Of a stretch of DNA of 64,000 nucleotides, positions 30,349 to 44,307 are shown one piece after another. The position numbers and the translations under genes were made by a program. The notes beneath the pieces were generated by a model that was not told where the DNA came from, did not search any database, and saw only the letters and a program-made list of their open reading frames with translations. Position 1 is the stretch's first letter. Each line of letters starts with the position of its first letter. The DNA comes from Candidatus Bathyarchaeia archaeon (GTDB lineage: Archaea; Thermoproteota; Bathyarchaeia; Bathyarchaeales; Bathycorpusculaceae). The DNA is taken from contig JBEKKK010000001.1 of NCBI GenBank assembly GCA_050010755.1, positions 96,001-160,000 on the forward strand, given 5' to 3'.

Positions 30349-30565
30349 CTTACAATCCCACCAAATTCATCTAATCAAATAGACGGAGCAGCTTCCTATT
30401 ACGTTTTCTCAGGCGGGATGCCGAACTTTGTGCATGTTTTGTCATGAATTGTTCGTCTAGAGGATTGATTGTTATTCAGAATTCATAACTCTTTTACTGT
30501 CCTTGCCGCACCTTTCTTTGTTGCGCAAATACGCTTGCGCATGGTTCATGCTGAGGCGTTAAAAC

Positions 30566-30964
30566 TTGTCAGAAGCGGCGAGGATTGCACTTCTTCAAGA
30601 AATGATGAAAGATGCGAAGCGAAACGAGAGAGGCGGCCTTTTAGCCTGCCTCGTCGGTGTGATTGTATCGGCCGCGGGTTTTTCAACTCTTCCGCTCGCA
30701 AGAAACTCTCTTGAGCTAGGGGTTGTGGGGCTGCTGATTGCTGCGGTCGGGTTCGTTGTGTACCTCCATTACGCAGGTGTATACTCTAAATTCGTCGGCC
30801 AATTGGCGAAGATTGCATTCAAGAGTGCCGAGCCGTGTCCGCAATGTGGGAAAGAACTGCCAGAAGGCGAATTTGGTTTTTGTCCTTACTGCGGAACATC
30901 TCTCAAACACGAGGGCGTCATACAACAAGAGTTGTTAGAAAGAAACGAGACCCCGTTGCCTTGA
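30566..30964 (+). CDS. Two-TM membrane protein with zinc-ribbon domain
   Basis: Two hydrophobic helices followed by CPQCG...FCPYCG. Confidence 0.75.
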   Translation: MSEAARIALLQEMMKDAKRNERGGLLACLVGVIVSAAGFSTLPLARNSLELGVVGLLIAAVGFVVYLHYAGVYSKFVGQLAKIAFKSAEPCPQCGKELPEGEFGFCPYCGTSLKHEGVIQQELLERNETPLP

Positions 30965-31027
30965 TTCTTGCGCCTGCCAAGAGAAAGTGTCAAATATAAA
31001 AAGGAATGCGCGCTTGGGAAAGTGCTT

Positions 31028-31222
31028 CTATATTTCTCGGATTTCGCATTGGAGTTTCTTGATTATTTCCTCAGCCTTCAAAGGCTCGATTTTCAGGGTG
31101 AAAAGTCTGCCCGGAGTTCGAAGCTTCAGTTTTACGGCGCCTTGCAACCTTTTCACTGCACAATATTCAGCGTGACCACTGATTTCGACGAATCTTTCAG
31201 TATCGAAAATTTCTGAAGGCAT
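31028..31222 (-). CDS. rpl38e: 50S ribosomal protein eL38
   Basis: MP.EI...E.F.E....A....VKR.....KLKLRT...L.TL......A..I pattern of L38e; 64 aa; GGTGA SD. Confidence 0.75.
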   Translation of the reverse strand: MPSEIFDTERFVEISGHAEYCAVKRLQGAVKLKLRTPGRLFTLKIEPLKAEEIIKKLQCEIREI

Positions 31223-31419
31223 CGCATTTCACCGCTCGTTCAGCCCACTCATGGTTCATGCTCAAGTTCTTATCTGTTTTGGTGACGCGGCCGAACGGAG
31301 AACGCGCTGCCTTGCCTTTTGAAACGAGAAGAAAGGAAACCAAGTGAAGTAAGCGTTAAAAGCTATAAAGAACTAATGCAATGTTGAGATTAACCGCGAA
31401 GCCGGGGCTGTGAGGCAAA

Positions 31420-31857
31420 ATAGGCATATTTAATCCGAGTGCGCCCTTTCTTTCAGACTTGAACCTGATACTTCAAATTGTCATCCTCGGCATCCTCGGC
31501 ATGGCAGTATACGCTAGGCTCAGGCATAGCACGGTGAAACATGCCGCGCTGATGGGCAGCGCAATCGGACTACACACTGTGGCGATAGGAGCCATAATGG
31601 TTCCCTCCTTGCTGAGCCTGGGCACCCTGTTGAGCAAGCTGATGACTAGTTTTGCCTGGTTAACGATAGTGCATGCTACTCTAGGAAGCATCGTAGAAAT
31701 ATTGGGGATATGGTTAGTGGCAACGTGGCTTTCGAACACGAAAAACGTTGAAAAATGCTTCAAAAGAAAGAACTTTATGAGAGTCACCATAGCCCTTTGG
31801 CTTACAGAACTGATTCTAGGCATCTTCGTTTACATGATGCTATATCTCCCCGCCTAG
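31420..31857 (+). CDS. Four-TM membrane protein (DUF420-like)
   Basis: Four hydrophobic helices with His residues (KH..LM, MVPS, HATLG); ORF track starts at TTG 31459 but frame is open to ATA 31420. Confidence 0.7.
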   Translation: MGIFNPSAPFLSDLNLILQIVILGILGMAVYARLRHSTVKHAALMGSAIGLHTVAIGAIMVPSLLSLGTLLSKLMTSFAWLTIVHATLGSIVEILGIWLVATWLSNTKNVEKCFKRKNFMRVTIALWLTELILGIFVYMMLYLPA

Positions 31858-31976
31858 CCGCGTCGCGGCCAAAGCGCACATACCTATTCCGAAATCGAGT
31901 CAAAAACAGCATGTATTCTTCCTCTGACATCGCGGCTCTTGCACGGGCTTGCCATAAAGACTAATCCCTGCACACC

Positions 31977-32413
31977 CAACGTGAAAACTTACGAAACAAC
32001 ATTACAAAGCAACATCACAATGCAACATTACAACTGACCTCACAAACAAACAGAAAAAGTCAGCCGTAAGGCACAGTCAAGCCTGTTTTCAACATCGTTT
32101 GTCACAAAACGACATTACAATTAACCTCACAAACGCAGAGGCGGGGGGCGAAAAGCAACATGGACACATATGTGTGTTCATTACATTTCAACATTACATC
32201 TGATGTGTGTGAAAAAAAGGGAGGGCACCGTTTACCATTGAAATCTGACATAACCCCAGGTTGTAAACCCGAAGAAAATGGCCGAACTCAACTCCCGCCA
32301 GGACCAAGTTTCAGCTTGCTTCGGGACGGGCACTGGCAACATGGAAAACTTACACTGCAACATTACACAGCAACATTACATCTGATGTAAAGAAAAAAAG
32401 GGGAGGGGGCCGA
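31977..32413 (+). repeat. Array of an unclassified ~75-bp non-coding repeat (3 copies at 180-bp pitch plus 1 partial)
   Basis: CAAC(A/G)TG at 31977, 32157 and 32337, each followed by CAACATTACA-like units at 13-bp period and, in the last two, an A-run/G-run tail; partial copy at ~32090-32150. Confidence 0.85.
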
Positions 32414-32479
32414 TCGCACAACTCGCAGGCTTGCATTCTACGAAGCTTTCCCTAAAAGGCAAATTCGAAAACTTGTGAT

Positions 32480-33274
32480 TCAGAAAAATCTCGCTAACAG
32501 GCTACTCACCGAGGGAATGTGCACGAAAATTCGAACGTAAATAGCTGAGGCCAGGACTCCGAGTGTGATGGCCATCATGACAGCATCCCCTCTGTGCAAT
32601 CTCAGCACATACAGGTTGGTACGTTTCTTAGTCGCTCCCCAAGCACGCGACTCCATGGCCTCAGCAAGTTCCAGACTCCTTCGAATCGCACTCACAATCA
32701 GAGGGATAAGAATCGGAATGTAATTCCTAATCCTTTTCAGAAAGTTCCCTTTCTCAAGCTCCAACCCCCTCGCCTTCTGCGCGTCCATAATCGTTTCAGC
32801 CTCTTCCGCCAAAACTGGAACAAAACGCACCGCCGTCGTGAAAGCAAAAACGAACTCGTACGGCACATGTGTCTGTTCCATGGCGAGACCCAAGTGATCC
32901 GGCGAAGTTGTAAGAAAGAAAATGGAAAACGACTCCACCAACACGACGAAACGCAAGGTCAAAGCTGTAGCCGACTCGACTATGCTAGACGTGAGCACGT
33001 AATGATTGCCGAAAAAGCTGAAAACCAGATTGGTCAAAAAGATTACCGCGGCAAGAAACGCTCCTCCACGCATCGAACGAAGCCATTCCCGCCTCACCCC
33101 GGCCAGAAGGACAAACGGAATTTGAAAGAGAAAAAGCGCTATCAAAGGCAAAAGTTGCCAAAACGTTATCGCAACCCCAAATATCACGCAAACATAAACG
33201 AACTTTATCCTCGGGTCCAAGTTATGTATAGGCGAGAAGACCTTGCGAAACTTGAGCCCTTCGAAAACGCTCAT
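32480..33274 (-). CDS. ecfT: ECF transporter transmembrane component
   Basis: IHNLDPR.K, RFVP, AQKARG, AMESR motifs. Confidence 0.93.
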   Translation of the reverse strand: MSVFEGLKFRKVFSPIHNLDPRIKFVYVCVIFGVAITFWQLLPLIALFLFQIPFVLLAGVRREWLRSMRGGAFLAAVIFLTNLVFSFFGNHYVLTSSIVESATALTLRFVVLVESFSIFFLTTSPDHLGLAMEQTHVPYEFVFAFTTAVRFVPVLAEEAETIMDAQKARGLELEKGNFLKRIRNYIPILIPLIVSAIRRSLELAEAMESRAWGATKKRTNLYVLRLHRGDAVMMAITLGVLASAIYVRIFVHIPSVSSLLARFF

Positions 33275-34095
33275 CCTTCGCGTTTCCCCAGCATTCCAAG
33301 CAGAATTCTCTGCGCCTCATAAATGTCAATAACGTCCTCGCAGACATTCATTCCGCGAAGCTGAATGAATATCTGAGCCACCTGCGGAGGCACAATCGAC
33401 GCCTGCATCAGAGTGTACTCCTCCGTGAGAATCTTTCTCGCCTCGCCATCAGCAATGATTCTTCCCTCACGCATCAACAGAACCCTCGGGTTGCACTCAG
33501 CCACAAACTCAACATCATGCGTCACCACGATGACGGTTTTCTTCTGTGTATGCATCTGAAGAATGAACTGTCGAAGCTTCTCCTTTTGCTCATAATCCTG
33601 CCCTATAGTCGGTTCGTCCAGTATCAGCATCGCCGGATCCCAAGCCAACACCGAAGCCAAAGCCACACGCTTCCTTTCTCCACCGCTGAGCAAGAACGGA
33701 GAAGTCTTCCTGTACTGCGTCAACCCCAAAAGATTCAGAGCCCAAGTCACCCTGCTTTCAATGACGTCCTCACCGAAACCGAAGTTTCTCAGTGCAAAGG
33801 CTATTTCTGCCTCCACTGTCTCGCTGAACAGCTGATTGTCCGGATTTTGAAAAACGAACCCAACGTTTCTGGAAAGAGCCGCCACGCTCACCTTTGTCGT
33901 ATCCACCCCGTCAACGAGCACCTGTCCAGCGGATGGTTTGAGCAGACCGTTGAAATGTTTTACCAACGTCGTTTTTCCTGCTCCGTTCTGACCCATTATA
34001 GCTACAAACTCGCCTTCCTGGACGGTCAGGCGTATTTCCTTCAAAGCCTCCACGTTGTTCGGATACCTAAAATAAACATCCTTGACCTCTATCAT
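33271..34095 (-). CDS. ecfA: ECF transporter ATPase
   Basis: GQNGAGKT, FQNPDNQ, LSGGE, LDEPT. Confidence 0.93.
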   Translation of the reverse strand: MIEVKDVYFRYPNNVEALKEIRLTVQEGEFVAIMGQNGAGKTTLVKHFNGLLKPSAGQVLVDGVDTTKVSVAALSRNVGFVFQNPDNQLFSETVEAEIAFALRNFGFGEDVIESRVTWALNLLGLTQYRKTSPFLLSGGERKRVALASVLAWDPAMLILDEPTIGQDYEQKEKLRQFILQMHTQKKTVIVVTHDVEFVAECNPRVLLMREGRIIADGEARKILTEEYTLMQASIVPPQVAQIFIQLRGMNVCEDVIDIYEAQRILLGMLGKREG

Positions 34096-44055: not shown

Positions 44056-44307
44056 GCCCCCTCCCCTTTTTTTCTTTACGTCTATTGTAATGTTGCATTG
44101 TAATGTGTAGGCGTAAATTTCCATGAATCGTGCAGTCTTCCGAAAAGGGTTGGAAATGGCACGCGTGTCAAACTCGGCCCCTCTGTGAGAGTTTAGATTG
44201 AGTTCCTGTTGAGATTTCAACGAGTGAACGGCAGGCTCCTCCCCTTTTTTCCTTTACATCAGACGTAATGTAGCCGTGTAATGTGTCAGCGTAAACGGTC
44301 ACGTTGC
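44056..44307 (-). repeat. Two further copies of the ~75-bp repeat, inverted relative to the 32-kb array
   Basis: Reverse complements read CATGGAAATTTACGCCTACACATTACAATGCAACATTACAATAGACGTAAAGAAAAAAAGGGGAGGGGGC (44056-44125) and GCAACGTGACCGTTTACGCTGACACATTACACGGCTACATTACGTCTGATGTAAAGGAAAAAAGGGGAGGAGCC (44234-44307); 178-bp pitch. Confidence 0.85.

Follow-up and report, generated by a model that had tools for sequence, protein, structure and literature searches.

The stretch of DNA considered here, referred to as the window, comprises 64,000 nucleotides from Candidatus Bathyarchaeia archaeon (positions 96,001 to 160,000 of contig JBEKKK010000001.1, or C1:96001-160000) and belongs to a genome of 2.19 Mb (G000) that is 93% complete in 8 contigs. 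A 622-bp gap between two convergent genes of the window is filled by a repeat array (31977-32408). The array amounts to between two and a half and three units of a lineage-specific, modular, non-coding intergenic repeat family, whose members we call TTAC-box elements. Three kinds of module are distinguished: a 71-nt module (H), the linker found between H modules (S), and a shorter variant unit (D). The features of the locus, along with a second locus of the family in the window, are listed below; the orientations of neighbouring genes, like the coding fraction used later, rest on crude calls of open reading frames (ORFs).

31459-31857, + strand: small membrane-protein ORF, with weak DUF420 and DUF5904 matches
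31858..32479, no strand: gap between the convergent genes, holding the array (from the ORF list)
31977..32155, + strand: D-type unit of 179 bp (D profile, nhmmer, C1:128002-128157, which is window 32002-32157, E 3.6e-45)
32156..32225, + strand: H module of subtype c3 (nhmmer, C1:128156-128225, E 3.4e-15)
32227..32336, + strand: S linker of 110 nt (S profile, C1:128226-128327, E 4.1e-17), which aligns with 21 other linkers
32337..32408, + strand: H module of subtype a1, the commonest form (nhmmer, C1:128337-128408, E 1.5e-19, the best in the genome)
32390..32409, - strand: C-run followed by T7, an archaeal-terminator-like tract read from the sequence, 72 nt downstream of the stop of the energy-coupling factor (ECF) operon
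32480-33274, - strand: CbiQ (ECF T component, E 4e-33), the final gene of an ECF-type transporter operon, with two ABC ATPase genes beyond it
44058..44306, - strand: second locus of the family within the window, cluster K2, made up of two H modules spaced 179 bp apart (nhmmer, C1:140058-140125 and 140237-140306)

Three 13-nt boxes (31997, 32010, and 32023) lie in the first half of the array's D unit; a middle part follows, and the second half, at ~32090-32150, has a G-run at its end. The c3 module that follows has a CACACA-type 5' arm, a TGTGTG tail, and degenerate GGATCC-like boxes, and the a1 module has a CAACATGG start, boxes at 32358 and 32371, a palindrome at 32376-32390, and a tail at 32390-32409. 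Much of this had been noticed in an initial annotation of the sequence. The five 13-bp units just mentioned are present, and their period is backed by Tandem Repeats Finder (period 13 at 31989-32033 and 32350-32380); so are the palindrome of the last copy, TTACATCTGATGTAA, and the A-run/G-run tails (32213-32225 and 32390-32409). The same annotation placed CAAC(A/G)TG starts at an exact 180-bp pitch. CAACGTG is indeed found at 31977 and CAACATG at 32337, but the middle copy begins at 32156 rather than 32157, and the actual spacings are 179 and 181 bp. Likewise, the sequence taken for a partial fourth copy does exist (~32090-32150), but together with the first copy (31977-32040) it makes up the two halves of a single D unit. 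When at most one mismatch is allowed, the window contains the 10-mer CAACATTACA 13 times, whereas 100 shuffles give a mean of 2.88 and a maximum of 8, none of them reaching 13; seven of the 13 occurrences lie within 31997-32380, all of them on the + strand.

The early description of the array as a real, non-coding, and unclassified element, distinct from CRISPR, tRNA, and Rfam families, has held up. None of the three ORFs of 43-76 aa within the 622-bp gap has a Pfam match, ARAGORN finds no tRNA in the window, and Rfam covariance models applied to 30500-34000 at E values up to 10 give a sole match, a chance one to bxd_6 (E 3.3) within the ECF gene. A protein-coding role for the modules was rejected: the 13-nt period and non-triplet indels break all reading frames, ATG is not kept in every subtype, and there are no Pfam matches. 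A CRISPR array (short palindromic repeats that are clustered and regularly interspaced) was also set aside, the 71-nt modules being too long and too varied by comparison with near-identical repeats of about 23-50 nt, and the linkers being homologous.

The window array is one of many. An iterated nhmmer search seeded with window 32325-32420 gave 68, 78, and finally 81 matches in successive rounds, and as the initial annotation had anticipated for a functional element, further copies with 13-bp and ~180-bp spacing abound. The 81 H copies, 62 of them full length, form 49 clusters on all the larger contigs, with one orientation per cluster. A locus holds one to four H modules; 28 loci have a solo H and 21 have H-S arrays, and all 32 adjacent H pairs are co-oriented. 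The architecture of H comprises a CAACATGG start, 13-nt CAACATTACA boxes holding TTAC, a 15-nt palindrome, an A-run, and a G-run tail. Anywhere from one to four boxes are found per H. Four perfect 13-nt boxes make up a module in another Bathyarchaeia genome (L154 480-560, - strand), and box number thus acts in the manner of a variable-number tandem repeat. The H copies are 66-99% alike and fall into several subtypes set apart by the first box and the tail, one of which, b2, has no palindrome.

The ~105-bp segments between copies, initially described as largely unique, turn out to form a repeat family of their own. Twenty-two linkers of 105-129 nt lie between H modules and are homologous to each other, with pairwise identities of 0.65-0.83 within one subfamily, and the S profile (nhmmer) recovers 23 places in the genome, 20 of which have H on both sides. 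Since the spacers form a second module family, the ~180-bp pitch reflects nothing more than how long one H plus one S is, and not protein phasing. Nor is the pitch fixed at 180 bp genome-wide: the 24 adjacent pairs at 150-210 bp have a median of 184 bp and a range of 151-200 bp, with a value of 180 occurring once. Six H pairs are closer (79-114 bp) and involve the D module type, which is represented by about 10 units elsewhere in the genome. Arrays hold n H modules and n-1 S linkers, and their subtypes recur in the order e, b, c, a, with two exceptions. Hybrid H forms (c1, for example, with a c-type 5' part and an a-type tail) are mostly found at array ends. The idea that S supplies guide-RNA-like spacers was dropped, as its variable part consists of diverged homologues, not unique sequence.

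The relationships among copies bear on how the arrays arose. All 38 arrayed copies have their closest relative at another locus (median identity 0.96) rather than next door (0.79), and because arrayed copies resemble other loci more than their neighbours, the arrays were not built by local duplication. Some b2 copies at separate loci are 95-99% identical within unrelated flanks. Units or blocks thus appear to have been copied between loci, or homogenised. At five loci that share the block H-S-H(a), identity is 0.92 for H(a) and 0.76 for S, which points to more constraint, or more conversion, on H than on S.

The midpoints of 18 of the 81 modules fall inside crude ORF calls, compared with a crude coding fraction of 0.84, an overlap count that is affected by the spurious ORFs which A/C-rich repeats produce. 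Among the 47 loci with two called neighbours, 15 are convergent, 6 divergent, and 26 co-directional, and 18 of the co-directional loci are sense to the genes and 8 antisense; these counts therefore indicate a preference for gene 3' ends. Of eight loci tested against congeners, seven coincide with a break in synteny, the end of an inversion, or the margin of DNA that has no congener match. The eighth is colinear, and there ~330 bp that are conserved in three congeners have been replaced in G000 by ~200 bp with a solo H. The background of breaks is not low, however: within 20 kb around the window array, the congener G002 has four block boundaries, two of which are at H loci. At the places orthologous to the two window loci, all six boundary stretches of G002 and G004 (another congener) have no module. 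The conserved ~330-bp congener segment at the colinear locus (L063 1998-2274 versus L109-L111) is possibly a small gene on the opposite strand.

The family has a narrow distribution. BLAST gives matches in 5 of 41 related genomes including G000, with 37 in G000 and at most 5 in any other, and the positive genomes belong to the same genus and to one other genus of the family. A triple TTACA with 12-13-nt spacing occurs 20 times in G000 versus twice for a reversed control, and none of 300 other genomes of the class, a sample drawn without the four congeners, has more than 6 occurrences. Neither the viral collection nor a first scan of species-representative genomes yields a match to the tail pattern, G000 itself being possibly outside these scans. 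A loose 13-nt double-box pattern gives mostly chance single matches in unrelated bacteria when applied to species genomes, along with two relevant Bathyarchaeia records (L148 and L154); a 13-nt microsatellite of Nitrosopumilus that also matches was taken as coincidence. The family is strongly expanded in G000 and present in a weaker, diverged form in its congeners. It has multiplied recently in one uncultured archaeon.

The congeners also provide a link to transposable elements. The D unit has many matches of 72-84% in G001, G002, and G004. In G001 and G002, a pair of D-type modules lies within a ~480-bp transposable element of the miniature inverted-repeat kind (MITE) that holds two to three TTAC-box modules, has 18-bp inverted ends, and is present in many copies (stretches L025-L031, L033, L036, L038, and L040 of these two genomes were examined), and the modules therefore travel there as MITE passengers. 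The ends of this MITE are those of a 1.1-kb DDE_Tnp_1 insertion sequence (IS) in G000 (C2:77969-79081, or L045 1470-2582), which encodes a 348-aa transposase (DDE_Tnp_1, E 4e-13) and has 18-bp inverted ends. Only four occurrences of the IS ends are found in G000 (at most one mismatch), none of them at an H locus. The repeat is thus not the decayed end of a known IS or MITE in G000, an identification that the initial annotation had considered, even if two congeners have a MITE in which a related type of module is carried. Searches for other enzymes gave no matches in the 93%-complete G000 to Y1 HUH transposase (PF01797) or TnpB (PF07282), for which controls were positive in 6 and 8 of 14 genomes, respectively. 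PF04986 (IS91 type) also has no match in G000, but its control was positive nowhere, and this result is hence uninformative. A third IS end (L045 3347-3364), 0.8 kb further on from the G000 insertion sequence, takes in an ORF for a 238-aa membrane protein, suggesting a composite element or a one-ended passenger.

To our knowledge, interspersed modular repeats are well studied in bacteria and hardly described in archaea. The BOX repeat of Streptococcus pneumoniae is arranged as boxA-boxB(n)-boxC, and BOX elements have been described as folding. Like BOX and the mycobacterial MIRU, TTAC-box elements are dispersed, non-coding, and intergenic, with variable internal units, a common orientation per locus, and no transposase of their own; such traits define BOX/MIRU-like repeats as a descriptive class, not as a homologous family. 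The differences are that there is no sequence relation, that the host here is an archaeon, and that the unit joins an H of 71 nt to an S of ~110 nt and has 13-nt boxes inside. In addition, no stable fold was detected in H or S, and promoter- and terminator-like signals lie on the antisense strand. The REP/BIME (REPIN)-RAYT system and IS200/IS605-derived elements resemble the family as short intergenic repeats at gene ends that form mosaics and are associated with rearrangement, and the TTAC motif is reminiscent of the IS608 target. However, no Y1 transposase or TnpB was found in the 93%-complete G000, the palindrome measures only 15 nt and is missing from one major subtype, and the units are direct rather than inverted doublets. 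MITEs derived from DDE-type IS elements share the non-autonomous, multi-copy, and lineage-specific character of the family, but H and S in G000 have no terminal inverted repeats or target duplication. In behaviour, TTAC-box elements are closest to bacterial BOX, MIRU, or BIME mosaics; by defining features, they are members of none of these, nor of the MITE, CRISPR, or integron classes. A literature search turned up no account of such elements in Bathyarchaeia, and the modular intergenic repeat family is real and, as far as that search shows, previously undescribed.

Because the repeats mark gene-order differences from relatives and carry plausible terminator and promoter signals, they offer a handle on genome rearrangement and on the bounds of transcription between convergent genes. 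They will also break assemblies (contig C2 starts and ends in them) and seed false "CRISPR-like" or "origin-like" calls in metagenome-assembled genomes of Bathyarchaeia.

The putative transcription signals lie on the strand opposite to the modules. Upstream of tRNA genes in G000, a transcription factor B recognition element (BRE, CCGAAA-like) is followed by a TATA box (CTTAAA- or CTAAA-like). A conserved stretch just 5' of each H, which reads GTTCCGAAAA on the opposite strand, resembles these tRNA promoters, and in units followed by S an A/T-rich box stands next to it. A BRE-like 10-mer (at most 2 substitutions) is found 20-26 nt beyond the H end in 18 of the 23 internal copies and 17 of the 49 that are first or single, where 0.023 would be expected per interval searched. 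The BRE-like motif is followed by a TATA-like hexamer in 14 of these 18 internal copies versus 1 of the 17 first or single copies. The antisense H tail has a C-run and then at least six T residues in 67 of the 75 copies that have a tail. The TATA-like box and the T-run are ~100-115 nt apart, and a transcript of ~85-100 nt would therefore be expected. In the window array, the - strand of S includes a degenerate BRE-like motif (reverse complement of 32318-32327) and a TATA-like motif (reverse complement of 32304-32314), and the T-run at 32390-32409 could end the ECF operon transcript. Each S may thus be a small transcription unit, a description that fits roughly half of the internal units.

On balance, we lean towards the view that TTAC-box elements are selfish repeats, prone to recombination, with terminator and promoter signals on their antisense strand. 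The repeats would be tolerated between genes because they bring transcription signals on the antisense strand: each H would supply a C-run plus T7 terminator together with a BRE-like motif, and each S would supply a TATA-like box plus ~90 nt of transcribed sequence, giving the H-S-H interval the appearance of a small self-contained transcription unit. The units do recombine at their shared boxes, and hybrid subtypes and a variable box number are the result. The only candidate mover seen is a divergent tyrosine recombinase, each of whose four gene copies abuts an H module.

Several observations weigh against this view. A fixed-spacing matrix built on the tRNA promoters gives scores of at least 10 for only 2 of 72 copies and a median of 1.3, compared with a background of 0.8; about ten internal units score 6-14, the tRNA range being 7-17, and the window's own unit scores 2.0. 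A simple BRE plus TATA regular expression is unspecific, 32 of its 48 genome matches lying inside ORFs, and the module arrays of congeners have no antisense promoter-like matches. The apparent preference for gene 3' ends is built on crude ORF calls. With regard to movement, the similarity between loci could partly reflect gene conversion. Neither H modules nor H-S arrays have terminal inverted repeats, and no target-site duplication was found: T-rich/GAAC motifs differ between the two sides within a locus, and both are present at only 3 of 35 loci. Moreover, a clean empty site was not recovered, the content of the single colinear locus having been replaced.

It is possible, if unlikely, that the elements are small-RNA genes, the other reading considered in the initial annotation, but only on the opposite strand. 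The - strand of each S would then encode a regulatory RNA of ~85-100 nt, started at a BRE/TATA promoter and ended by a T7 terminator; a regulator would bind the H boxes upstream of that promoter, and the arrays would amount to tandem small-RNA genes. In 14 of the 23 internal units, BRE-like and TATA-like motifs do occur at one fixed offset, and the T-runs (at least six T in 67 of 75 tails) follow ~85-100 nt downstream. S has conserved sequence blocks across loci and is nearly confined to H-H intervals (20 of 23), and the succession of H and promoter also precedes the recombinase genes. The predicted RNAs, however, have no fold signal. RNAalifold gives no consensus structure on either strand for H with flanks, the H core, S, or the predicted - strand RNAs, and single-sequence folding energies are like those of shuffles (median z of 0.36, and -0.23 for the complement, over 19 units). 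There is also no Rfam match, most copies are weak in promoter score, S is missing from the 28 of 49 loci that have a solo H, conservation is lower in S than in H, and the promoter-like motif is missing from the arrays of congeners.

A second alternative concerns the recombinase-like genes, which encode proteins of ~366-390 aa and are present in four copies (C1:204311-205408, C3:24616-25608, and both ends of C2). Upstream of every copy, 80-200 bp from its start, is a partial or full H that points away from it, and in the three close paralogues the shared DNA ends immediately behind the H tail. The protein family is large and environmental, with 393 matches. Its residues R151, K183, H247, R250, and Y279 are invariant in a 25-member alignment, and 7 of the 25 members match PF00589 (Phage_integrase), with a best E value of 2.3e-7. 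The query itself reaches only E 0.011, and a search of the family profile against PDB sequences gave only coiled-coil chains, for the C-terminal tail. The initial annotation had proposed looking for a co-occurring recombinase gene, and all four copies do abut H, but the link is found in G000 only. No H or D modules lie near the homologues in 3 relatives or at any of 28 metagenome loci, and G002, which has many modules, has no homologue at E 1e-20.

These genes raise the question of whether H is the site at which the encoded recombinase acts, with direct 13-nt arm-like boxes plus a palindromic core in the manner of FRT or attP. Excision would release S-H units as small circles, which would then enter a resident H, leading to co-oriented arrays. 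This proposal, which we regard as doubtful, gains from the divergent H upstream of all four genes, the end of paralogue homology directly after the H tail, and the retention of R..HxxR..Y in the protein family. The arrays themselves also fit, with n H and n-1 S modules, all co-oriented, and hybrid subtypes that are joined in the shared box/palindrome region. Against it stand the homologues that have no module nearby, the lack of a homologue in module-rich G002, the 45 of 49 loci without a recombinase gene in the vicinity, the shared descent of three of the four adjacencies, the marginal PF00589 match of the query along with the coiled-coil result, and the lack of a palindrome in b2.

There is some resemblance to integron arrays and FRT-type sites in the co-oriented site-spacer-site arrangement, the recombinase-like gene reading away, and the direct repeats by a palindromic core. 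Unlike integrons, the family occupies 49 dispersed loci, its ~180-bp cassettes would be non-coding, there is no long imperfect palindrome of the attC type, and the recombinase link is seen in G000 only. An integron-like platform, in which non-coding ~180-bp cassettes composed of a promoter, an RNA of ~90 nt, and an oligo-T stop are excised and inserted at H sites by archaeal tyrosine recombinases with a coiled-coil tail, is quite improbable; if it did exist, the archaeon would be shuffling small RNA genes with their terminators between gene ends. More generally, if either the recombinase link or the small transcription units were true, the family would represent a new kind of mobile non-coding cassette.

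We consider it very unlikely that the functional unit is a fold of the sense strand, in which H, as RNA or single-stranded DNA, would form a stem by pairing the first TTAC box with the 3' GTAA. Changes in that box and in the 3' arm do go together (TTACA/TGTAA, TTACG/CGTAA, CACACA/TGTGTG), and the three exceptions to this pairing seen by eye in the alignment are G·T, not A·C. That said, the co-variation follows subfamily lines and is broken in recombinants (six c-type 5' arms with an a-type tail, and one of the reverse kind), and because of this it deserves little weight. No RNAalifold consensus is obtained on either strand, the stems are only 5-7 bp, and any box can pair with the single 3' arm.

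A phased platform of binding sites for a partition, replication, or chromatin protein, the centromere- or origin-like interpretation offered initially on the grounds of evenly spaced copies with variable segments between them, 180 bp being a multiple of the histone step, is barely credible: in-phase direct 13-nt boxes, a fixed orientation in arrays, and an architecture kept across diverged subfamilies are set against 49 dispersed loci rather than one or a few, a pitch that varies over 151-200 bp, homologous spacers, loci that are not conserved in congeners, neighbours of the window loci that are transporter and housekeeping ORFs with no par or rep gene seen among them, and a 13-bp period that does not hold sites on one helix face.

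Additional observations were made around the recombinase-like genes. An intron-containing tRNA-Ser gene of 142 nt (C1:205626-205767, - strand), found by ARAGORN in intron mode and missed by both plain ARAGORN and the Rfam tRNA model, lies ~100 nt beyond the recombinase-side H and adjoins the C1 recombinase copy, past H and an S-like stretch. A tRNA gene is a usual site for an integrated element; an att duplication around the recombinase island was not found in 9.8 kb. The 200-kb contig C2 has an inverted recombinase gene plus a partial H at both of its ends (L013 1-1400 and L014 8700-10000), 92% identical over 1.1 kb, and these ends mark either a repeat at which the assembly broke or the borders of a large segment flanked by inverted recombinase genes. 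In one recombinase paralogue (L013 ~1107-1285), an additional segment of ~182 bp, neither H-like nor S-like, lies between the start region and the promoter; it is lacking in the other two. Finally, two metagenome homologues of the recombinase (L079 and L096) have other direct repeats upstream, GTAAAA-like with A-runs and unrelated to H by profile, which are possibly the homologues' own sites.

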